DNA of 14,109 bases, taken from contig CAWDPO010000021.1 of assembly GCA_963804165.1 (NCBI GenBank), positions 1 to 14,109 on the forward strand. Direction: 5' to 3'. Below are positions 2,582 through 13,226 of the stretch, one piece after another. This stretch comes from an uncultured delta proteobacterium. GTDB taxonomy: Bacteria; Desulfobacterota; Binatia; UBA9968. The position numbers and the translations under genes are program-made. The notes below the pieces were generated by a model. The model was given only the letters and a program-made list of their open reading frames with translations. It had not been told where the DNA came from and made no database searches. Numbering within the stretch: position 1 is the first letter of the stretch; every line of letters starts with the position of its first letter.

Positions 2582-3049
2582 AATGTCACCGCTGTTATGC
2601 TGATCTTTATCGCGATAGCTAGACCACAGTCAAGGACCGTAACTCTATTTGCAGTCGTAAAGGGTGCCGCTTGCTGAGCGTACGGGCGCCCCAGTAAATC
2701 AAACGCGCACGCGCGGTCTGCGTTTTCCTGAATGGTTCAGTTTATTTTCCAGAAGCGGTGCCGGCACTCTTCGCACCTGAGGGAATGGTCACCACGGCTT
2801 GCGACGGCTGGGCTGGCAGGTGCTCCGCTTCGGCCCGCTCGACTGGCATTGTTGAAGCGGAATCGACTCGATATCGAAACCGGTCATGGCGGGGTGGCGA
2901 GGCTTCGCTTTGCCGAAGCCTTACCACCCGTGCCCGTGGGACGTGAACGCCGCAGCCGTGCCCGACTCCAGCAAACGTAAACCGTGATCGCTTCGCCCTT
3001 GCGTCGTTGATCGCGGCTACATGTCCGCTGGCCGGTGTTCATACCCCGC

Positions 3050-3457
3050 TCAGTCGTATCCCCAAACTTTGATGGTGGCCGTCGGTTTATTATCGAGGAT
3101 CTTGTACTGGACCGCCACCGACGTGAGGGTCGCCTCGCGTCCTGGAGCGTCCTTCTCAGCCGTTTGTCCTCCCGACTTCACGACTCCGACCTTCGTGATG
3201 GTGTCGTCCTTACGACCCTTCCAGCGGAGGACGACCTTCGTGATCTCCACGTCACCGCCCTCGACCGAGATCTTCATCTTCTTGATGTCCTCCTTCCACA
3301 TCTTCCCCGCTTCGGCCTTGATGTCCGTGCTTGGATCGGTGGCCTTGACCATCTTCTCGCTTAGCACGAACCACTCGTCAGCGCTGGCGCTGCCAAGGGC
3401 GACCAGCGAGAGGACCGATGCGAAGCCAACGGCCCTCCCTAGATATCCTATCTTCAT
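3050..3457 (-). CDS. Secreted beta-rich hypothetical protein (DUF2541/YaaI-like)
   Basis: 135 aa. AGGAG RBS upstream of ATG, signal peptide ending ASA-D, C-terminal 'ATIKVWG'. Family assignment is by resemblance only. Confidence 0.75.
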   Translation of the reverse strand: MKIGYLGRAVGFASVLSLVALGSASADEWFVLSEKMVKATDPSTDIKAEAGKMWKEDIKKMKISVEGGDVEITKVVLRWKGRKDDTITKVGVVKSGGQTAEKDAPGREATLTSVAVQYKILDNKPTATIKVWGYD

Positions 3458-3741
3458 CGTTTCTCCTGTCCTTTCTGATCCCCGTTAGCCGGAGATCGTT
3501 GCGCCTACCGCTTAATGCGAGTTGCACAGCCGTGGGACCTGTCTATAAATTTAAACAACCTTTTTCTTTTACTATCTCTAACGGACTCACTCTTTGCTGA
3601 CTATCAGGGGTTTACTGATTTCTTGATACGATTTCCCTTAGTCTCGGCGAATCGGCAATGCCAAGAGTTGAAAGAGAAATCCGACCGTAAAGAGGCGACA
3701 GAATAATTTTGGCCGATTTCTCGGGGGTTTGTGCGCTCTTC

Positions 3742-3921
3742 GATTTGTTCCAACGGGCCGCAACTTATGTGGACAAAATCCTCAAAGGCGCCAAACCCGC
3801 CGATGTTCCCGTCGAGCAGCCGACGAAGTTAGAGTTCATCGTCAAACTCAGAGCGGCCAAGTAAATTGGCCTGACGATTCCGCCGAATGTGCTGGCGAGG
3901 GCGGACAGGGTGATCAAGTGA
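3742..3921 (+). pseudogene. Orphan 3' fragment of ABC transporter substrate-binding protein (ABC_sub_bind type)
   Basis: Translates [58 protein letters not shown]. Internal TAA at 3862-3864 and no upstream coding region. Homologous to 5311-5484. Confidence 0.9.
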
Positions 3922-3950
3922 GCAAAAGAAAACAAAGCAGCGATGCTAGG

Positions 3951-4016
3951 ATTGAGCTGTATTCTCCATCAACGCAATTTCGCGTCACATCATATTGAAG
4001 CGTCGTTCAGTTCAAT
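3951..4016 (+). repeat. Paired-site element copy 1 (subtype A)
   Basis: ATTGAGCTGTA-TTCTCC-ATCAACGCAAT / TTCGCGTCAC / ATCATATTGAA-GCGTCG-TTCAGTTCAAT. Flanks AGG...CCT extend the inverted repeat. Confidence 0.92.
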
Positions 4017-4162
4017 CCTGCGCTGAAAATAGCCTTTCCCGCACGGTGAATTGGGATTATCGAATTTAACCGGATATTGGACAGTTTCTGACGGCCAGCC
4101 GAGGGAGTAACGCTGTGTCCAAAGTTCAGTGGAAGGCGACCGAACTAAAAAGTTTACCAGGG

Positions 4163-4348
4163 TTACCGCTGATGCCGCCAAAAACGTGGCAGCAATAGCG
4201 GCCCACGTGCAGCTCGAAGAATAAAATTCGGCTTCGGCTTGTCCTTTTGCTGCTCAAGACTCTCGAGCCACTGGTCTAACGCCTTGCCTTGAATATCGAA
4301 AATCATCCGGCGTCGACGCCGTTTGCTAAACGACCGAAGGTTTATCAT
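4163..4348 (-). CDS. Possible small basic hypothetical protein
   Basis: 61 aa ORF from the ORF track, in otherwise unexplained space. No recognised motif. Confidence 0.2.
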   Translation of the reverse strand: MINLRSFSKRRRRRMIFDIQGKALDQWLESLEQQKDKPKPNFILRAARGPLLLPRFWRHQR

Positions 4349-4506
4349 CGGATCCTAATTTGACCACGATGTCGGGGATGGTGCAATGCATTTGTATGAA
4401 ATGAAGATGGAGAGACCGCTCGGTGAATCTGGTTCTCTTTCTGCCGTAAATAACACTTTTCTCAGCTTCCGTATCCGTGATAAAAGCCACAAGAACGAGT
4501 TATGCA

Positions 4507-5484
4507 ATGAAGAGAGCTGCGCCGCTATCCCATCCTGTTTGCAGTGATACTGTTTGCGGTTGCGGGATCGCCGAGGCGCAGCAGCCGAAAACATCTCGGA
4601 TAGGCGTGTTGGTTGCCGGCTCGGTTTCGACCCACAAGAGCCGCGACGATGCTTTCCGTCAGGGTCTGCGTGAACTTGGGTACACTGAGGGAAAGAACAT
4701 TGTCATTGAGTATCGATATGCAGAGGGCAATCTCAGTCGATACCCTGAGCTTGCTAATGAGATGGCCCGCCTGAAACCGGATGTTATCGTTGTAGCAAGC
4801 ACCAGGTTCACGGCTGCCGCCAAACAGGCCACCAGCACGATTCCGATCGTCGTTGGAGGAGCTGGCGATATTCTTGGCGAAGGGCTGGTTGCCAGTCTCG
4901 CCCGGCCGGGTGGAAACATTACGGGTTCAACCAACATTTCCCCGGACTTGAGCGGAAAACGACTGGAATTGCTAAAGGAAGTCGTTCCGAAAGCCTCGCG
5001 AATAGCCGTCCTTTGGACTGTCGGTCCGGACGCCAAGGAAGTAAAAGAGACAGAAATTGCTGCCCAGGCGTTTGGCCTGAAGGTTCAGTCACTACAAGTA
5101 CGAGACCCAAACGAGTTTCAGGCCGCCTATGCTGCGATGAGGAAAGAAAATGCCCATGCGCTCATCCTTATTCAGGGGAGCTTCACTTTGTTTCACCGAA
5201 AACAGCTCGTCGGGCTAGCGGCCGAGAATCGACTGCCCACGATGTGTGAATCGCCATCATGGACAGACGACGGTTGCCTCTTATCGTATGGGCCGGATTC
5301 GCTGTACTAATGGCGGCGCGCTGCGGTCTTCGTCGACAAGATTCTCAAGGGCACCAAGCCGGCTGATCTACCCGTTGAGCAGCCGATGAAGTTCGAGCTG
5401 GTGATCAATTTGAAAACGGCGAAGCAGATCGGCCTAACGATTCCGCCCAACGTACTGGCGAGAGCGGACAAAGTGATCAAGTAA
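4507..5484 (+). pseudogene. ABC transporter substrate-binding protein (ABC_sub_bind family), disrupted
   Basis: Family motifs AEAQQPK..RIGVL, FRQGLRELGYTEGKNIVIEYRYAEG, GLVASLARPGGNITG, GKRLELLKE. In-frame TAA at 5308-5310, after which the frame continues [14 protein letters not shown]...ADKVIK* to 5484. Signal peptide scrambled by +1/-1 indels at ~4531 and ~4566. Confidence 0.9.
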
Positions 5485-5491
5485 CGCCAGA

Positions 5492-5555
5492 ATTGAATTG
5501 AATTCTCCTACTAACAAATTCTGTGAGATTTGATCGTTGCGTCGTTCAGTTCAAT
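5492..5555 (+). repeat. Paired-site element copy 2 (subtype B)
   Basis: ATTGAATTGAA-TTCTCC-TACTAACAAAT / TCTGTGAG / ATTTGATCGTT-GCGTCG-TTCAGTTCAAT. Flanks CAGA...TCTG are complementary. Confidence 0.9.
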
Positions 5556-5728
5556 TCTGCCGGTGTTTGTTGGCTGTGGTCTGGAGGAAAATAGGCTGCG
5601 GATCGTTAGGGAGATAGGCCGCCGAGGTTGACAGCGTTTGCAGGCCACAAAGTTGTTGACAAGGGGGGGTATCTGAAGGATATTCCAAACCCCTATGTTT
5701 CCCAACCCACGCTGAAAGGAGCGTTTGA

Positions 5729-6202
5729 ATGAAATCACTCACCTTGATTGCACTTGTTGGTTACGCGATCCTTGCAGGATCTGCCTCCAACGCGGCCCAG
5801 GCCACACGAACGGAAAGTTGCAAGGTCACCACCGAAAAGGAGATCGCATCGTTGTTTGACCGGTGGAATCAGTCGTTGCAGACTGGCGATCCGCATAAGG
5901 TCGTTGCCAACTATGCGGAACGCTCCATTCTGTTGCCTACCGTTTCGAACAAACCACGCTTGACCCCGGCGGAAAGAGAAGATTACTTTCATCATTTCCT
6001 AGCGGATCGCCCCTCCGGAAAGATTGATCTGCGCTTCGTAGAGATCGGCTGCAACACCGCCGTTGACGCTGGCCTCTACACATTTACGTTCGCCAAGACA
6101 GGCGCAGTAGTCAGTGGCCGCTATAGCTATACGTATCGCTGGGATGGTTCGAAGTGGCTCATTACCAGCCATCACTCCTCCGCGATGCCAGAGAAGAAGT
6201 AG
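5729..6202 (+). CDS. SgcJ/EcaC family NTF2-like secreted protein (DUF4440 / CaMKII association-domain-like)
   Basis: AAAGGAG RBS at 5715-5721 and signal peptide. Motifs 'IASLFDRWN.SLQTGDP', 'LLPTVSN', 'DAGLYTF', 'RYSYTY', 'WLITSHHSSAMPE'. Confidence 0.9.
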   Translation: MKSLTLIALVGYAILAGSASNAAQATRTESCKVTTEKEIASLFDRWNQSLQTGDPHKVVANYAERSILLPTVSNKPRLTPAEREDYFHHFLADRPSGKIDLRFVEIGCNTAVDAGLYTFTFAKTGAVVSGRYSYTYRWDGSKWLITSHHSSAMPEKK

Positions 6203-6210
6203 TGACAGGG

Positions 6211-6238
6211 GTATAACCCTTCGTTGCAGCGGACTGCC
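6211..6238 (+). other. Left half of an integron attC-like site (truncated)
   Basis: GTATAAC-CCTTC-GTTGCAG-CGGACTGCC starting 9 nt after the stop of 5729..6202. Matches the R''-5 nt-L'' layout of attC; the right half is replaced by the substrate-binding gene tail. Confidence 0.55.
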
Positions 6239-6396
6239 GCTTATGTCGACAAGATTCTGAAGGGCGCCAAGCCCGCCGATCTGCCAGTCGAGCAACCGAC
6301 CAGTTTGAGTTTGTGATCAATCTGAAAACGGCAAAGCAGATCGGTCTGACAATTCCGCCCCGCGTGCTCGAGCGGGCGAATCAGGTGATCAAGTAA
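6236..6396 (+). pseudogene. Orphan 3' fragment of ABC transporter substrate-binding protein
   Basis: [22 protein letters not shown]-(1-nt deletion ~6301)[30 protein letters not shown]. Confidence 0.9.
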
Positions 6397-6423
6397 CCGA
6401 ACAAAGCGACGCGGCGAGCTAGG

Positions 6424-6485
6424 ATTGAATTGTATTCTCCAACGACTTAATCCTACAAGACGCGACTGTTGCGTTCCAGTTCAAT
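6424..6485 (+). repeat. Paired-site element copy 3 (subtype B, 2-bp deletion in right core)
   Basis: ATTGAATTGTA-TTCTCC-AACGACTTAAT / CCTACAAG / ACGCGACTGTT-GCGT-TCCAGTTCAAT. Flanks AGG...CCT. Confidence 0.88.
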
Positions 6486-6610
6486 CCTGCGGCGATAATA
6501 AGCTTGACTTTGATCGAACTGATAAAATAGCGTGGGCTAGCCAGAGTGTGTTGGGTTTTTCAGAATCATTCGACGAAGCCTAAAATCTCTTTACGTTGAA
6601 GAGGTGCGCG

Positions 6611-7525
6611 ATGCTTTCGCACAATTACTCCTACCAGGAATGTCTCGACAATTCCAAGAAGGTAGCGTGGAAAGAGGACGATGTTTTTGCAGGGAAGAAT
6701 TTCGATTTCTCGAAGCGTTTCCTGCCGAATCGATTGAGCGGTGTTGACAACATCACATGTCTGAACGACAACGAGAAGCGCCAGTTGAACCAGATCATGG
6801 GCAACGCCTACTGCCATATCTTCGCTTTCGTGGAGGAATTTATTATTCCCATGGTGACGCAAGCGGCGTTGAAGGACGCCTACGGGGAGAAAGTCAGGCT
6901 CCGTTCGCTGCTGCGGTTCGCAGAGGAGGAACTCAAGCATCAGGAGCTCTTTCGCCGCGCGGTGGTCTTGTTCGACCAAGGTTTCGGCGCGCAGTGCGGC
7001 TTAATCCCCGGTCGGGAGGATGTGGCGAAGGTCGTCCTGAGCAAGTCGGTGCTGGCCGCGCTGTACTTGACCACGGTAATCGAATGGTTTACCCAGCTCC
7101 ATTACGTCGAACACGTGCGTGATGCCTCGGGTCTCGATGAGCTGTTCCGCGATCTTTTGAGATTTCATTGGATGGAAGAGGCACAACACGCCAAACTTGA
7201 CACCATGCTAATCGACGAGATTGCGGAGACGGCGACCCTCGAGGAGCGAGAAACTGCTGTCGATGAGCTCCTCGAACTTGGGGGAGCTATCGACGGGTTA
7301 CTGTTGCAGCAGATCCAGCTGAACATAGAGACTCTGCAGAACGTGACCGGCCGCAAGTTCACGGAAGCCGAGAAAGAGGAGATTTCGACAAAGACCCATC
7401 GCGCCTGGAGATGGACTTTCCTGGTATCGGGATTGGAGCATCCCAACTTTGTCAAACTCGTCAACGAGTTGACGACAGAAGGACCGGAAAAGATCAAGGG
7501 CGCCGCGAAAGCGCTTTCCGCCTAG
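6611..7525 (+). CDS. Ferritin-like diiron protein (AurF-like diiron oxygenase superfamily)
   Basis: Paired E...ExxH motifs: FVEEFI / EEELKHQ and IEWFTQ / HWMEEAQH. ATG at 6611 is preceded by GAGGTG (the ORF track starts at TTG 6596). Confidence 0.82.
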   Translation: MLSHNYSYQECLDNSKKVAWKEDDVFAGKNFDFSKRFLPNRLSGVDNITCLNDNEKRQLNQIMGNAYCHIFAFVEEFIIPMVTQAALKDAYGEKVRLRSLLRFAEEELKHQELFRRAVVLFDQGFGAQCGLIPGREDVAKVVLSKSVLAALYLTTVIEWFTQLHYVEHVRDASGLDELFRDLLRFHWMEEAQHAKLDTMLIDEIAETATLEERETAVDELLELGGAIDGLLLQQIQLNIETLQNVTGRKFTEAEKEEISTKTHRAWRWTFLVSGLEHPNFVKLVNELTTEGPEKIKGAAKALSA

Positions 7526-7645
7526 CATGACCTGGCCACCAAAGCAAAAACTGGAAAAAAGAAACGCTGAGGCAAGACCTTCCGAGGGAAACAATTGATG
7601 TGCGGTCATCACGTTTCTCAATCACAGGCGATTGTGCTGCCGCTT

Positions 7646-7702
7646 CACCAACTCCTCGGGTTGAGACCGACGCTCGAAGCACCGCTCACCCGAACGTTAC
7701 GA
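7646..7702 (+). other. Degenerate integron attC-like site
   Basis: CACCAAC-TCCTC-GGGTTGAG...CTCACCC-GAAC-GTTACGA. TCGGGTTGAG pairs with CTCACCCGA leaving one extrahelical base, with AAC/GTT ends. Runs directly into element copy 4. Confidence 0.55.
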
Positions 7703-7767
7703 TTGAACTGCATTCTCCATCAACGCAATCTCGCGTCACATCGGACTGAAGCGGCGTTCAGTTGAAT
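7702..7767 (+). repeat. Paired-site element copy 4 (subtype A)
   Basis: ATTGAACTGCA-TTCTCC-ATCAACGCAAT / CTCGCGTCAC / ATCGGACTGAA-GCGGCG-TTCAGTTGAAT. Confidence 0.92.
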
Positions 7768-7913
7768 ATGCCCCGTGTCGCAGCGCACCGTCACGAGCGT
7801 AAAAGCGCCCTTCGCTTTCCCCCTCGTTTATCTGCGTCTTGAGCGGCTGGTGAATTAAAACCCCGCTCTTGGCTGGGAGTCAACTTTGAACAACATTGGA
7901 TAGTGATGCAGTT

Positions 7914-8105
7914 TCAAGTTTGATTCTGCATCGACGGGCACGGCGTATCCCCATAGGAACAAAACACGCAGCAATCACCCGCCTTGGCTTTCATCAGTTC
8001 GTGGCACGATTTGCACTCGTAGAAAAACTGGCAATAATCCACCGGCATCGCTACTCGCTCTACATGGCCACAGTTCGGGCATTTCAAGTTGCTTTCGGTT
8101 TGCAT
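7914..8105 (-). CDS. GDCCVxC domain-containing Cys-rich small protein
   Basis: 63 aa with CPNCGH, CQFFYECKSC, KAGDCCVFCSYG, CPS. The stop codon lies inside the terminal inverted repeat. Confidence 0.9.
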   Translation of the reverse strand: MQTESNLKCPNCGHVERVAMPVDYCQFFYECKSCHELMKAKAGDCCVFCSYGDTPCPSMQNQT

Positions 8106-8110
8106 GCTCT

Positions 8111-8182
8111 TTATCCGATTAAATTGACTATATCAGAGATTTCCCAAACCTTGTTAGTTACTCCCGCTTCCATTGCTGGATT
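8111..8182 (-). pseudogene. C-terminal remnant of IS1-family transposase
   Basis: Reads NPAMEAGVTNKVWEISDIVNLIG*, resembling the 'TPAMxAGxxxxxWxxxxIV' C-terminus of these transposases. It lies between the TIR and the passenger gene. Confidence 0.7.
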
Positions 8183-8220
8183 TTATTTTTCCTGAAATTG
8201 AAACTGCATCACTACCCAAC

Positions 8221-8248
8221 ATTGCGTTGAAGCGTCGTTCAGTTCTAT
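8221..8248 (+). repeat. Element copy 5 (right-hand site only)
   Basis: ATTGCGTTGAA-GCGTCG-TTCAGTTCTAT. Its first 4 nt overlap the IS target duplication. Confidence 0.88.
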
Positions 8249-8410
8249 CTCGGGCCAAATCTGGTTTTGTCACTCGACGAATGTTTCAAGACAGGACAAC
8301 ATTTGGACACGGAGCCGGATCGGATTGACAGCATCGAAGGCGGGTACACTAGAAGAGCAGTCGGGATGATTCGCAAGACTACCTCACCCGATGACACTTG
8401 TTTCTGCGTT

Positions 8411-8911
8411 TCACTTTTCGGATTTACCGAAATTTTTAATCCAGGATGCACCCGTCTCTTCGAGTGCGGAGCGAATCGCATTGCCATGGGCCGGGAAAGT
8501 GCTCGCGGCTTCAGCCCTCGTCGAGGCTTGAGCACGACTGCGGGATATTAAAACCAATTCCACATCCGTGGTCTTTTTTGAAGTGACGCTCACCGTCGCA
8601 ACTTCCGGCTCGAAGGCTACCCTGCTGACCTTTAGGATGTAACTGCCGGGCTCCAAGTCTTTTTTCACGTAGCGACCTTGGCGATCGGTCTGAGAAGTGC
8701 CAAGCAAAACCTTTTGTGAGGTCAAAAGCTCCACGTGCGCGCGCGGAACAGGTGCCCCACCTTGCTCGCGCACGACAGCTGCGATGTCGCCCGGAGCAGA
8801 CGGGAAAAAATTGTAGGCTCCGACGACGGAAGCAACTGAGCCGCCAAGAATCCCTATCCAGGTATTGATTCTTTTCAGCCATAAATCGTGTCGGGTTTCT
8901 GCAGCGCCCAT
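8411..8911 (-). CDS. Membrane-anchored carboxypeptidase-regulatory-like (prealbumin-like fold) domain protein
   Basis: ATG at 8911 with GAGG RBS and an N-terminal TM (WIGILGGSVASVVGAY). Motifs 'V.EQGGAPVPRAHVEL', 'TDRQGRY..KDLEPGSYILKVS..AF'. Confidence 0.8.
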   Translation of the reverse strand: MGAAETRHDLWLKRINTWIGILGGSVASVVGAYNFFPSAPGDIAAVVREQGGAPVPRAHVELLTSQKVLLGTSQTDRQGRYVKKDLEPGSYILKVSRVAFEPEVATVSVTSKKTTDVELVLISRSRAQASTRAEAASTFPAHGNAIRSALEETGASWIKNFGKSEK

Positions 8912-8964
8912 AAAGACCTCTATTGAAATTGACTGTCTCGATTGCCTTGGGACCCATGTCTTGC

Positions 8965-8979
8965 GCAAGCAACATGCCA
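8965..8979 (-). promoter_or_regulatory. Putative sigma-54 -24/-12 promoter
   Basis: Minus strand TGGCATG-TTGC-TTGC matches TGGCAC/TG-N4-TTGC, ~54 nt upstream of the ATG at 8911. Confidence 0.6.
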
Positions 8980-9409
8980 GAATACGAGGCGTTGTTTTTT
9001 TGGGAAACGGGGGGTGGTGATAAGAAGATTCGAGACAAAAAAGTCAGCTTGGTGGGCGAGGAAAGCAACAAGCACTAGGAATTTTTTCCGAGATTCAAGT
9101 AAAATTGTTTCGGATTCGCGAATAACTTCCCGGCCTAATGTGATTCCGCTGTAGTCGCATGGAGCTTGCTCGATTTTTCCACAACCCGGAGAACGTTGAG
9201 ATCTGATATCGAGGACACAGTCCGAGTCATCGTCGAGCGTGTTGGCTCTCGTGACATCGGCGAGTCCGCCCATCGAACTTCACGAAAGAGAATTCTAGAG
9301 CGGGTGGAACAAAACCACCTACCCTCCGTTCAGGGCATAAGCTTATGCAACGTTGTGATCAGAGGTTCCGGCGTTCTCTCAGGCAAATGCGAAACCGACT
9401 TTGCAGCCT

Positions 9410-9565
9410 CTACCGTTCCATCCTACTGCGGAGGCCCAACTCGGAAATCCTTGAGGAATTGTCGCCCAATTGCAACGCAGAGGTGTCCCAAGTGGGATTT
9501 TCCCGAAGCAACGAGATCAGAGACCAGAAAACAAAAACCAGCGCCAGGAGTGTGCTTGTATTCAT
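9410..9565 (-). CDS. Possible small membrane/secreted peptide or gene remnant
   Basis: AGGAG upstream of ATG 9565 and hydrophobic N-terminus MNTSTLLALVFVFWSLISLL. Only 51 aa. Confidence 0.3.
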   Translation of the reverse strand: MNTSTLLALVFVFWSLISLLRENPTWDTSALQLGDNSSRISELGLRSRMER

Positions 9566-9898
9566 ATATTCTCTCCTGTACCCGCGATTGTTCCACAGGA
9601 AAAATTTGATCCTCCGGAACTCGGAAGGGTCTCGGGTTTCAAAGTATCGTCTGATCCAAATAATCAGGTATGCATAACAGTGTCTGTCCAATATTAGACA
9701 GTTCCGAAATAATTATAATCAAGCCCGCGGGTGTGCCCGATCGTAATTGGTGATCGTTGATTTGGTGCCTTCGGCCGTGATGAATTACTTGAAACTTATT
9801 CGTGTGCGTTGTCGCAAGGAGGCTGTTTGGAAAGTCGGGATTCACAACGGCACAAGCGAAAGCCTTTTGAGCAAAGAAAGCGAAGCGGCGATGCTAGG

Positions 9899-9964
9899 AT
9901 TGAACTGAATTCTCCATCAACGCAATCTCGAGCGACATCGCATTGAAGCGTCGTTCAGGTCAAT
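9899..9964 (+). repeat. Paired-site element copy 6 (subtype A)
   Basis: ATTGAACTGAA-TTCTCC-ATCAACGCAAT / CTCGAGCGAC / ATCGCATTGAA-GCGTCG-TTCAGGTCAAT. Confidence 0.92.
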
Positions 9965-10128
9965 CTTAGGCTAAAAATCTGGTTCTTCCGCGCAACCCGT
10001 GCTGGAAATGCGCACCGATAGCAGCTGCTCGCAGCAACGTGACGCCAGAATTGCAATGTTGCGCTCCTGTTTCAGCGGTGACACGCTTATCGTTGAAGGC
10101 ACCTAATTGATTAGGAGGGCATGACAGC

Positions 10129-10362
10129 ATGAACTCCCAAACTACAGGATTGCTAGTGTCGAGCGTGGTGTTCGCTTCGCTGGCCATTGCGCAGCTGGCG
10201 CGGCTTGTAATACGGCCAGAAGTGCTTGTAGGTGGTTATCCGATGCCATTGTGGCCAAGCGTTTTGGCTGTTATCGTTTTCGGCGGTCTGAGTCTTTGGT
10301 TGTGGAGACTTGCTCGCACGCCTACCAGCGAAAACAGTGAGGCGAGGCGCATAAGCCGCTAA
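10129..10362 (+). CDS. Small two-helix membrane hypothetical protein
   Basis: 77 aa with AGGAGG upstream and two hydrophobic segments joined by 'PEVLVGGYPMPLWPS'. Confidence 0.75.
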   Translation: MNSQTTGLLVSSVVFASLAIAQLARLVIRPEVLVGGYPMPLWPSVLAVIVFGGLSLWLWRLARTPTSENSEARRISR

Positions 10363-10424
10363 CCATTGGATCTAACTCGGCGGGGAACTAAGAAAACCCG
10401 CTGTTGGTTTTGGATTAGGCTAGC

Positions 10425-10452
10425 ATCGCGTTGAAGCGTCGTTAAGTTCAAT
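10425..10452 (+). repeat. Element copy 7 (right-hand site only)
   Basis: ATCGCGTTGAA-GCGTCG-TTAAGTTCAAT. Confidence 0.88.
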
Positions 10453-10560
10453 CTCACGTCGATTACAGAATTTGACTGTAGGTTTGAGGACTATCCACGA
10501 ACGCGTTATGCGAGTAAAAACGCTTTCAGGCCATTTGCGTCTTTAGGGATTCTGTAATGT

Positions 10561-11208
10561 TCACTGTTCGCTAACCTCAACGTCGTCGAGAGCCGTAAGA
10601 ATACCGAGCTCCAAGGCCGTGATTGGAAGCGTCGGACAGCCCGAGGGCCGTTTGGCCTCTGTGCCTTCACAATTTCGCGTCACCCGCTGGTAGTAACCGA
10701 CGAATCCGCGCTCCCCTTTGCTCAGGAACAGTTGAATCATCTGGTCGTTTAACCGTCCATTGGTCATCTCGCTGTAGAAGGCAGATAGCTCGCCGAAGTG
10801 TCCGGTTAAAGGTCTGCCGATCCGGTACGAGTAATTGCCGTGAAACGCAACGTAGCTACGGTCATTGGCCAACCGGCGATCCGCTCCACCAAGGAACGCA
10901 TTGGCGCAGGCTGAGTTACAGTACCCCAAGGCAACGGTCGACAGCCCTCGGCGTCGAATCTCGTGAGCAAGGGCTAACCCGATCAAATGTACCCCGCCCG
11001 GGCTGTTGGTGAAGACGACAGTTCGTATGGCTGGGGTTAGGTGCGAAAGGAATTTGTCGTAATCCAACTCGTTAATGAAACCGCTGAGGATGAGCTGAGA
11101 GCCGCTGACGCTCATCTCCATTGCTGAAGTGGGGACGGCTCCCAGCAGAAGCAGCGAGACGTACAGCCAAACGGGTAACTGTTTAATTAACTTCATCGGT
11201 TCCATCAA
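10561..11208 (-). CDS. Secreted ClpP/crotonase-like fold protein (COG3904-like)
   Basis: Signal peptide (likely start 11205 or 11196). Motifs 'LILSGFI', 'NSPGG', 'CNSACANAFLGGADR', 'VAFHG'. Confidence 0.78.
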   Translation of the reverse strand: MMEPMKLIKQLPVWLYVSLLLLGAVPTSAMEMSVSGSQLILSGFINELDYDKFLSHLTPAIRTVVFTNSPGGVHLIGLALAHEIRRRGLSTVALGYCNSACANAFLGGADRRLANDRSYVAFHGNYSYRIGRPLTGHFGELSAFYSEMTNGRLNDQMIQLFLSKGERGFVGYYQRVTRNCEGTEAKRPSGCPTLPITALELGILTALDDVEVSEQ

Positions 11209-11304
11209 TTTCAGTTGATTCGACGTTTAGCGCCTCGGCTCGGTTCGTTGCAAGCGGCTCTCGGCTCGCTTTCAACTGCTCGATTGCGTGAAATGACACT
11301 ATCT

Positions 11305-11399
11305 AACTAACAAAGCGGTGGAGGGGAACGCAGCAGTCCTGCCGCTGGATTCCCTTATCGCTTCGGATCCTCAGCGCTCCCTCAACGCCAACGCTAAGG
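11305..11399 (+). other. Degenerate integron attC-like site
   Basis: AACTAAC-AAAGC-GGTGGAG...CTCAAC-GCCAAC-GCTAAGG gives R''-5-L''...L'-6-R' spacing as in attC, with R' GTT changed to GCT. Ends 5 nt before element copy 8. Confidence 0.55.
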
Positions 11400-11404
11400 C
11401 TGTA

Positions 11405-11468
11405 ATTGAACTGATTTCTCCTACGACTAAATCCTATGAGATTTGACTGAAGCGTCGTTCAGTTCAAT
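11405..11468 (+). repeat. Paired-site element copy 8 (subtype B)
   Basis: ATTGAACTGAT-TTCTCC-TACGACTAAAT / CCTATGAG / ATTTGACTGAA-GCGTCG-TTCAGTTCAAT. Confidence 0.92.
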
Positions 11469-11609
11469 CTCAGGCTGAATCCCGTCTTGTGGCTCGAAGA
11501 ATACCTGTCGCTTTCAGTCGTAAATCTCAGTTTCCCTCTAATGCCGCCCGCGTGATACATAGCAATTGGTGTGGCTTCATGTGACGTTCTTATCCTGGAT
11601 CAGAAACGT

Positions 11610-13093: not shown

Positions 13094-13226
13094 CCTAGGG
13101 CGTGGCGGAAAAAACAGGTGGACCTCATCGACTTTGCCACAACTTTGCCAGAACCATTTGCACGAATGTGTCTGCGCAAAATTTGGTAATAACTCATTGA
13201 CGTCCGTACGCGCATGTCCAGTTTGC

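Follow-up and report, generated by a model that had tools for sequence, protein, structure and literature searches.

The 14,109-nucleotide stretch of DNA analysed here (the window) is the entire 14.1-kb contig C21 of a metagenome-assembled genome of an uncultured delta proteobacterium of the Binatia (GCA_963804165.1, referred to as G000), an assembly of 7.5 Mb in 46 contigs that is 81% complete with 5% contamination. Between positions 3951 and 11468, the window contains an array of genes punctuated by copies of a short non-coding element, and this element and its relatives are the subject of the present study. Each full copy is a composite of two inverted 28-bp sites with an 11-6-11 layout, namely: the left half-site A, which reads ATTGAACTGAA-TTCTCC followed by a weak arm, and the right half-site B, in which a weak arm is followed by GCGTCG-TTCAGTTCAAT. 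The loop between A and B is 8 or 10 nt long in the window, and 7-12 nt long among the 29 distinct full copies of the genome. When matched at ≤3 mismatches, the right-half 17-mer GCGTCGTTCAGTTCAAT is found 7 times in the window and the left-half 17-mer ATTGAACTGAATTCTCC 6 times, always on the + strand, compared to 0.03 and 0.02 matches, respectively, expected from 200 shuffles; neither 17-mer has any match in the window outside 3951-11468. The total is six composites and two right-half-only copies, all on the + strand. A first-pass annotation of the same DNA had described eight copies of one element in a single orientation and absent from the flanks, a 28 + 8-10 + 28 bp parse into back-to-back inverted 11-6-11 sites, and an array organisation with intervals of ~0.5-1.7 kb that hold about one gene in either orientation. 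This anatomy is borne out in every part, with roughly one open reading frame (ORF) in each interval.

Element 1 (3951-4016) is made up of an A site at 3951-3978 (ATTGAGCTGTA-TTCTCC-ATCAACGCAAT), a 10-nt loop and a B site at 3989-4016 (ATCATATTGAA-GCGTCG-TTCAGTTCAAT). Element 2 (5492-5555) has an 8-nt loop between A and B, and begins 10 nt past the stop codon of an ABC_sub_bind pseudogene. In element 3 (6424-6485), the B spacer is cut to GCGT by a 2-nt deletion and is hence missed by the B pattern; two metagenome loci (L127 and L130) have an inner sequence that is the same as or near-identical to that of element 3, with GCGTCG intact. Element 4 (7702-7767) has the B spacer GCGGCG and the outer arm TTCAGTTGAAT, while element 6 (9899-9964) has an outer-arm variant, TTCAGGTCAAT, that is carried with the downstream block into contigs C23 and C22. 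Copies 5 (8221-8248; ATTGCGTTGAA-GCGTCG-TTCAGTTCTAT) and 7 (10425-10452; ATCGCGTTGAA-GCGTCG-TTAAGTTCAAT) are the B-only sites, and composite element 8 (11405-11468) is the final array site in the window. In addition, a variant-site inverted pair at 7891-8224 (TTGAAACTGCA-TCACTA-yCCAAyrTTG; arms at 7891-7920 and 8195-8224) lies around a Cys-rich 63-aa ORF on the reverse strand (7914-8105). Its TCACTA/TAGTGA spacer is a third class, present as a true inverted pair and found in G000 at this position of the window only; it may mark an inverted or foreign module.

The cargo of the modules is as follows. Module 1 carries an ABC_sub_bind (PF04392) gene (4477-5485, +) with a stop at 5308-5310, after which it continues in another frame, making it the pseudogene mentioned above. 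Module 2 encodes a CaMKII_AD/SnoaL-like protein (5729-6202, +) that has a relative in an array of the congener G018, with 77% DNA identity over 434 nt, the similarity being confined to the coding sequence. Module 3 holds a weak AurF-like (di-iron oxygenase-like) ORF (6596-7525, +) and module 5 the gene of a CarboxypepD_reg-domain protein (8411-8968, -). Modules 6 and 7 contain ORFs of 77 aa (10129-10362, +) and 215 aa (10561-11208, -), neither of which belongs to a Pfam family. Two orphan 3′ fragments of ABC_sub_bind genes are also found: the first (3744-3922, +) has an in-frame stop and immediately precedes element 1; the second (6220-6397, +) starts at the same codon position as the first and, from ~6320 on, matches a full-length paralogue on C23 with an identity of 97-100% per 40-nt window. 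The GC content is 0.47-0.56 in the array vs. 0.51-0.59 in the flanks. In the left flank, a 760-bp segment (2802-3563) with a DUF2541-like ORF (3050-3457, -) has further copies on C23 (45219-44460; 97% identity) and on C22 (90%), and is syntenic in the congener G044 at 89%. Furthermore, a 25-nt inverted repeat with GGCAAAGTAATGGCAAA, 88% complementary, is located at 792-816 and 13129-13153 and encloses nearly the whole window; a similar motif lies near an array on C5, and one soil contig links 880 to 13131.

With ≤2 mismatches allowed, the G000 assembly contains 59 A and 63 B half-sites; the reversed patterns, used as controls, had only 3 and 9 matches even at the looser threshold of ≤3 mismatches. 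Thirty-three of the A halves are in full composites (29 distinct), 3 are in hybrids and 23 have no matching B half, although two of the latter are composites with a 2-nt deletion in the B spacer. It should be noted for these copy counts that C21 9912-14109 and C22 1-4207, from the same bin, are 98.9% identical over 4.2 kb, which may reflect a real duplication, a strain variant or an assembly overlap. The 122 half-sites are spread over 30 regions, namely 18 multi-site arrays and 12 single-site regions. The arrays hold most of the copies in a total of ~108 kb out of 7.5 Mb (1.4%), and the orientation of the sites is uniform in 17 of the 18. Of 91 pairs of adjacent sites, 77 consist of one A and one B. 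From A to B, 32 gaps are short (29-34 nt) and 9 are long (482-8275 nt). The modules, which extend from B to A, measure 545-4416 bp (n = 36); their longest frame runs in the direction of the array in 27 modules and against it in 9. The conserved arms point to gene modules of 0.5-4.4 kb, and the weak arms face each other. ABC_sub_bind genes are frequent neighbours: 24 of the 59 A sites lie within 120 nt behind the stop codon of such a gene, in 22 of these 24 cases the element begins 10-32 nt past that stop codon, and A-B sites occur in the spacers between tandem ABC genes. G000 has at least 144 ABC_sub_bind C-termini, many of them in tandem runs of 12-29 genes ~1 kb apart (on C6, C38, C37, C16 and others), and only 24 have an A site.

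For comparison within the genus, we used 31 genomes. Profile matches for the integron integrase (IntI) and for the recombinase of the insertion sequence (IS) described below were taken at E≤1e-40. The genus tallies for IntI, IS recombinase, the looser site pattern and dif take in one unpublished genome (G005), and none of the claims depends on it alone. The looser site pattern is present in 22 of the 31 genomes and the stricter one in 14; nearly all listed matches have the two spacers or near variants of them. Apart from a few short contigs that were binned elsewhere, all contigs with exact composites bear the label Binatia or ‘uncultured delta proteobacterium’. The element has so far been seen in one Binatia genus and in soil metagenomes. 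Single 28-bp sites also occur in ordinary intergenic regions of G006, of G015 (77 nt after a tRNA-Arg gene) and of G019 (beside an IS110-family gene). The G019 site is a perfectly palindromic B-type site, ATTGAACTGAA-GCGTCG-TTCAGTTCAAT (L066 3024-3051), ~300 nt from an IS110-family transposase fragment (L066 1907-2725), and a second IS family, IS110, may thus use the sites. Several A-only or hybrid sites (C14:163799, C23:267800, C23:240659, C2:265828; L067 2840-3060) are followed by a conserved unit consisting of a 17-nt motif, TGTCCGCCTTTTGTCCG, a terminator-like hairpin and GGTTCTAGTCACGATTGA. This unit has no Rfam match, continues in G006 into a tRNA 3′ fragment, and may represent a small RNA gene or the terminus of a different integrative element.

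The consensus of the 59 A sites is ATTGAACTGAA TTCTCC TTCAACTCAAT, and that of the 63 B sites, read on the bottom strand, is ATTGAACTGAA CGACGC TTCAGTTCAAT. The arms of A and B share one palindromic consensus, and the two sites differ by their spacers, which read from the conserved arm as TTCTCC and CGACGC. Next to 350 arm-like 11-mers, these 6-mers occur 51 and 49 times, respectively, and otherwise only variants or hybrids recur. Beyond the sites themselves, the outer arms lengthen into ~17-nt inverted repeats (GCYAGG ATTGAACTGAA ... TTCAGTTCAAT CCTRSG). The first-pass annotation had assigned the outer arm to XerD and the inner arm to XerC, an assignment that does not agree with both arms following one palindromic consensus; this consensus instead suggests a single recombinase species acting on both.

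That annotation had further based a dif-like character on matches of 8/11 and 6/11 to the arms of E. coli dif. The arithmetic is correct, but the matches carry little weight because the candidate dif of the genus is different. This candidate, TGATAA-GAKATA-TTATGTAAACT, has one match in 26 of the 31 genomes (≤2 mismatches, some of them weak) and in 10 of the 10 high-quality genomes; in G000 it is located at C15:118091-118113 (-), ~15 kb from an XerD-like gene (C15:102475-103407), and is probably the dif site. Compared to it, the conserved arm of our sites matches at only 6/11 and the other arm at 3/11, and the spacers are unrelated. A 23-nt pattern derived from E. coli dif had no match in the 31 genomes. 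A dif of the form TGAA-N6-TTCAGTTCAAT was also considered and rejected, as it retrieved only A/B-type sites beyond a few weak one-mismatch matches.

These results bear on the view that the arrays are XerCD-dependent dif-like modules, i.e. a counterpart of the Acinetobacter plasmid dif (pdif) modules recombined by the host's chromosome-dimer resolvases. The 11-6-11 geometry, the conservation of one arm and variability of the other, the modules bounded by alternating inverted sites (77/91 pairs) and the two Xer-like matches of ~306-343 aa in several genomes of the genus would all fit. So would the targeting of the sites by an IS, as described for ISAjo2-type elements and pdif (PMC10132070). However, with the 6/11 and 3/11 arm matches and unrelated spacers relative to the candidate dif, an arm consensus common to both sides where XerC and XerD half-sites would be unlike, and 9 of 31 genomes that have XerCD-type genes but no site, we consider this view very improbable, and the XerCD flavour of the original proposal is not retained.

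The likeness in organisation nevertheless remains close. Both systems have 28-bp 11-6-11 sites in which one arm is well conserved and the other varies, an inverted alternation that produces modules between conserved or between variable arms (D and C modules), cargo in either direction and a dedicated IS. They differ in that the arrays found here are chromosomal, in an uncultured Binatia genus, whereas pdif modules are on plasmids; in addition, the Binatia sites are unlike the host's candidate dif, have one palindromic arm consensus, and alternate between exactly two fixed, unrelated spacers, and the Binatia ‘C modules’ are mostly just the 8-10-bp loop with two weak arms.

The exact position at which these sites are cut and joined is marked by an inserted element of 2529 bp, which carries a tyrosine recombinase gene followed by the gene of an IS91-family transposase (NF033538, 430.6 bits with a cut-off of 125). 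In G000, all four left ends of this IS abut an arm plus GGAGAA, GCGTCG or GCGTC, and all four right ends abut TTCAGTTCAAT. In the congener G043, the IS lies within a full composite, with GCGTCG on its left and TTCAGTTCAAT on its right. We extended this to metagenomes, where 293 relatives of the recombinase led to 80 loci kept, with 58 distinct left and 44 distinct right flanks. Forty-seven of the 58 left flanks end in GCGTCG and 8 in GGAGAA (≤1 mismatch), i.e. 55 together, and one of the remaining three is an IS-to-IS junction; 42 of the 44 right flanks begin with TTCAGTTCAAT, exactly in 23 cases and otherwise with ≤2 mismatches. From the junctions in G000, G043 and the metagenomes, it follows that the cut lies between the spacer and the conserved arm, whichever the spacer. 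The right end of the IS brings its own 6 nt (TATCCG and variants), with TT to the right of the joint in both partners, and the IS-to-IS junction retains ...AAAACC-TATCCG↓TTGGAC (the arrow denotes the joint).

The inserted element resembles IS91 and ISCR elements in its NF033538 transposase (430.6 bits), the subterminal palindromes at its ends, the lack of a target duplication and an oriIS-like right end of the CTATAC type. By our own count, terminal repeats of the integrase-bearing IS91 subgroup match the arm of the sites at 9/11 (GTTGAACTAAA), 8/10 (TTGGACTAAA) and, in Bradyrhizobium, 8/11 (ATTGAACGAAG). IS91 relatives are described as inserting beside a tetranucleotide (CTTG/GTTC) next to oriIS, as single-strand circles (PMC13181058). 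The present element differs from such canonical members in that, in nearly all junctions examined, it uses one position of a 28-bp site (spacer↓TTCAGTTCAAT) instead of the CTTG/GTTC tetranucleotide (PMC13181058).

Joints at the same position are also found independently of the IS. Three hybrid sites (arm-TTCTCC-arm′) consist of an A spacer joined to a B-type outer arm; two of the three are in copies of one cassette, which amounts to about two independent events. The block at ~6320-7718, with module 3, recurs on C23 and stops exactly at TTCTCC↓, as does a block end at C12 58066. Modules 6 and 7 (9951-11469) recur on C23 at 99.3% identity behind a hybrid site, with the left end at spacer↓TTCAGG (9951). 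In general, blocks common to different arrays are 97-99% identical. The DNA has been broken and rejoined exactly at the borders between spacers and arms, and breakpoints in the 6-bp cores, for which the first-pass annotation had suggested looking, are thus seen at IS junctions, in hybrid sites and where shared blocks end.

The arrays are accessory islands, and modules recur in different arrays. The array on C43 is 13.9 kb long, while the same intergenic spot is 17-111 nt long and free of sites in G043 and G018. In other congeners, this spot holds unrelated insertions of 4.8 kb (G044:C13:336372-341204) and 2.6 kb (G003:C19:87064-89662) without A/B sites, and it looks like an insertion hotspot. 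Synteny between the left flank of the window and G044, first with 96% and then with 89% identity, extends to ~3741, where the orphan ABC 3′ fragment before element 1 begins; no A/B sites were found in G044 in the 16 kb following the end of synteny. Of the earlier proposal that these are tyrosine-recombinase sites bounding mobile cargo, the anatomy, the core breakpoints and the insertion of the C43 array relative to congeners are all in agreement.

Public data were used as a further source, namely 20 soil or rhizosphere runs containing 23-35% of the sampled words; four of these runs, from four studies, were compared with the window as Logan contigs. Module interiors are found at 95-99% identity, and the contigs end at sites. 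The candidate joints in these runs have short sides and lie within repeats or ABC paralogues.

We also weighed the possibility that the element is an unusual attC family, with the arrays being integrase-less clusters (CALINs) whose folded single strands are recombined by IntI in trans. attC sites are defined by conserved AAC...GTT triplets with crossover at G↓TT, and they act as a folded single strand with paired R and L boxes, in which the structure is conserved more than the sequence; an integron cassette holds one ORF without a promoter, which runs in the direction of the array and has the site at its 3′ end. In the element, ATTGAAC...GTTCAAT is present and the joints are at GCGTCG↓TT in B sites and at GGAGAA↓TT in A sites, and a 7-5-7 parse is possible (ACTGAAT-TCTCC-... 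/ ...-GCGTC-G↓TTCAGT) that gives a G↓TT joint in B sites. The architecture of two inverted ‘simple sites’, the length of 63-69 nt within the attC range, the start of the element 10-32 nt after the upstream stop codon (22/24) and the 27 of 36 modules with a co-oriented longest frame also fit attC. IntI itself is found in 15 of 30 congeners, and GTTCAA repeats, a motif within the outer arm, are abundant upstream of IntI in G018, G017, G015 and G014. In these four genomes, 9-bp-periodic GTTCAANNN repeat clusters in inverted sets lie directly upstream of IntI, around small ORFs of ~450 bp (L038 112-156, 594-640, 910-945 and 7254-7340; L035 495-530 and 980-1045; also L058 and L059), and may be integrase-binding repeats of the attI region or a separate cassette boundary.

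The distribution of IntI nonetheless does not follow that of the sites. G000 has no IntI (TIGR02249) above the 265-bit cut-off, the best match being 104.9 bits, within an assembly that is 81% complete, and G044, which is 99% complete, has sites but no IntI. Across the genus, the presence of one is unrelated to that of the other, with IntI in 7 of 14 site-positive vs. 8 of 17 site-negative genomes. On G018 contig C6, 40 kb were searched and no copy of the element was found next to IntI, nor was one seen in the IntI neighbourhoods of G018, G017, G015 and G014. The IntI-linked array in G014, the only such array examined, instead has CCTAAC...GTTAGG repeats, which look like classical attC.

A selected hairpin was considered as well and dropped. 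The outer arms pair at 9.8/11, which is simply their consensus; the inner arms pair at 5.5/11, and in rigid register there are 5.48 pairs within elements vs. 5.35 between them (p = 0.30). Likewise, the DNA folding energy is -1.68 within vs. -1.73 between elements (p = 0.59). There is hence no excess over shuffled partners in inner-arm pairing or folding energy, i.e. no within-element complementarity beyond the consensus, although this does not by itself exclude attC. In addition, about one third of the elements either exist as half sites or have their halves set 0.5-8 kb apart by cargo, an arrangement that would be incompatible with a folded attC. It is unlikely, although no covariance model was applied, that the element matches a described attC family, and recombination of the arrays as CALINs has a low probability in our view.

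The comparison with integrons is still informative. Both have co-oriented arrays of mostly single-gene modules and a composite of two inverted simple sites directly 3′ of an ORF; in both, the outer half-site is better conserved, the joint is at G↓TT (here in B sites) and the outer arm moves with the downstream module. The differences are the lack of IntI in G000 and of a genus-level link to IntI, a folded strand without sign of selection, the frequent half or split sites, the 25% of modules with reversed cargo and the use of other repeats in the G014 integron array. Overall, the organisation of the arrays is closest to dif modules, and some details are closest to attC.

The main rival, unlikely as we judge it to be, is that the elements are palindromes similar to repetitive extragenic palindromic (REP) elements or bacterial interspersed mosaic elements (BIME), i.e. 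weak 28-mer hairpins in 3′ untranslated regions with a structural or mRNA role, assembled into arrays by tandem duplication and homologous recombination, and serving as an IS landing pad. REP/BIME elements are inverted palindrome pairs, dispersed between genes over the whole genome and often located behind substrate-binding-protein genes, and are targets of IS. The element likewise consists of short imperfect palindromes paired in inverse orientation, and it frequently follows genes of substrate-binding proteins: 24 of the 59 A sites lie within 120 nt after an ABC_sub_bind stop codon, and A-B sites lie in the spacers of tandem ABC genes. This view would also account for the single sites in ordinary intergenic regions of G006, G015 and G019, for a shared block whose left end is in homologous ABC sequence, and for a cognate recombinase not having been found by profiling in the genus.

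Several observations count against such a repeat. Of 18 Y1_Tnp matches, 15 were inspected for linkage to a REP-associated tyrosine transposase (RAYT), within ≤400 nt and at ≤2 mismatches, and none of these had flanking inverted arm pairs, only scattered single matches. The stems are AT-rich and weak, and conservation is highest in the unpaired 6-nt spacers (the ‘loops’) and in one arm, not in the stem, with inner arms pairing at only 5.5/11. Most copies are confined to accessory multi-site arrays (~108 kb, 1.4% of the genome), the orientation within arrays stays uniform around the 9 of 36 modules with reversed cargo as well, and hybrid sites join unrelated spacers and arms. Searches of Rfam at the gathering score yielded no family in the window, and only two tRNAs in L069. 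The first-pass annotation had named random orientation, target duplications and an Rfam family as signs that would speak against it; none of these was found, with 17 of 18 arrays uniform in orientation and no Rfam match. As for target-site duplications, which together with terminal inverted repeats and random orientation characterise miniature inverted-repeat transposable elements (MITEs), none were seen by inspection; inverted outer arms are present, and the flanks GCYAGG / CCTRSG are themselves inverted, not direct.

We also considered that the composites are miniature, non-autonomous derivatives of a tyrosine-recombinase transposon, so that the composite is the mobile unit and the genes between copies are mere neighbours. 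G018 has a frameshifted Xer-like recombinase gene between an A-only and a B-only site, and this A-recombinase-B arrangement would be the autonomous form. The extension of the outer arms to ~17-nt inverted repeats (GCYAGG ... CCTRSG) and the resemblance of the arm to the terminal repeats of an integrase-bearing IS91 subgroup (the 9/11, 8/10 and 8/11 matches above) are in line with it. On the other hand, the G018 recombinase is found in 1 of 31 genomes, target-site duplications were not seen, whole modules recur in new contexts, and a uniform orientation with strict A/B alternation over tens of kb is not expected from independent insertions. We therefore regard this origin as quite unlikely.

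The recombination-site reading is preferred chiefly for the joints at a single position, and further for the anatomy of the sites, their two fixed spacers and strict orientation, and the accessory nature of the islands. In this reading, to which we assign an even chance of being correct, the elements are double-strand core-type recombination sites that bound mobile gene modules and are organised like Acinetobacter dif modules. That the modules move by site-specific recombination, and by which enzyme, we infer from sequence comparison. A number of points weigh against it. Homologous recombination, or mere loss of alignment, would likewise place block ends at the edge of a conserved 17-mer, and the left end of one shared block falls inside the conserved 3′ end of an ABC paralogue. 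The IS joints could have been made by the HUH transposase instead of the tyrosine recombinase. As insertion sequences target REP elements as well as recombination sites, the targeting by the IS is not proof that recombination is the function of the site, and the position behind a substrate-binding-protein gene is classic for REP-type elements. In the public runs, which consist of short contigs ending at sites, no excised circles or polymorphic joints are shown. Finally, the G018 in-array recombinase was found in no other genome (1/31), the IS-type recombinase was not found at E≤1e-40 in the site-rich G018, G044, G024, G003, G017, G045 and G004, and neither of the two co-occurs with sites across the genus.

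With respect to the enzyme, the first-pass annotation had raised the question of linkage to a tyrosine recombinase gene, and two such links exist: the IS91-family element with an IntI/Xer-like recombinase inserted in sites, and the Xer-like gene between A and B in G018. The best models for the IS-borne recombinase are of the XerA and IntI type, all below cut-off (180.6 vs. 220 bits and 156.3 vs. 265 bits, respectively), and the protein lacks the IntI-model segment between positions 181 and 238. A pair of integrase and IS91 transposase is also present on a Bradyrhizobium plasmid, with 48% identity. No role for the accompanying tyrosine recombinase of IS91-type elements was found in the literature searched. 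The IS-borne enzymes are the leading candidates for the recombinase of the sites.

In the mechanism that we propose, a tyrosine recombinase would bind the arms as a homodimer-like pair and exchange strands at the spacer border. Since the two spacers are unrelated, A could not recombine productively with B, and only A × A and B × B events between direct repeats would be productive, which would keep the arrays co-oriented. The enzyme, which would be neither IntI nor XerCD, would most likely be supplied in trans by the site-targeting IS91-family element, with its IntI/Xer-like tyrosine recombinase and Y2 HUH transposase. The joints of the IS itself could arise by either of two routes, namely: a one-strand exchange by the tyrosine recombinase between sites with unlike spacers, or nicking by the HUH transposase.

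A more far-reaching proposal, possible but on the unlikely side, is that the arrays represent a third, independent gene-cassette system, with palindromic lox-like sites, two heterospecific spacers, and co-oriented chromosomal arrays that are built and shuffled by the IS91-family element. Cassettes could then be acquired in one of two ways. In the first, a single strand would be exchanged at CG↓TT by the IntI-related tyrosine recombinase, in the manner of integrons. In the second, the rolling-circle transposase would run past its own end and stop at the next GCGTCG↓TT, thereby capturing exactly one module per event. If true, the system would show, in a living lineage, how an insertion sequence can give rise to integron-like platforms and their sites, and would provide a function for the unexplained recombinase of IS91-type elements.

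In the literature searched, mostly at the level of abstracts, there is no description of the element or of Binatia cassette arrays. To our knowledge, stockpiled genes bounded by short recombination sites are known from two systems, namely integrons and the Acinetobacter plasmid dif modules, and the way in which the latter modules move is still unsettled. Even if the REP-like alternative were true, the sites would still offer a clear-cut example of an IS that is specific for one position of a repeat. Three questions are opened to bench work: which enzyme recognises ATTGAACTGAA, whether unrelated spacers enforce orientation, and what the role of the IS91-type integrase is. What is found in this uncultured soil lineage looks like a further system of the same logic as these two, in which an IS marks the exact cut position in more than 100 independent junction flanks.

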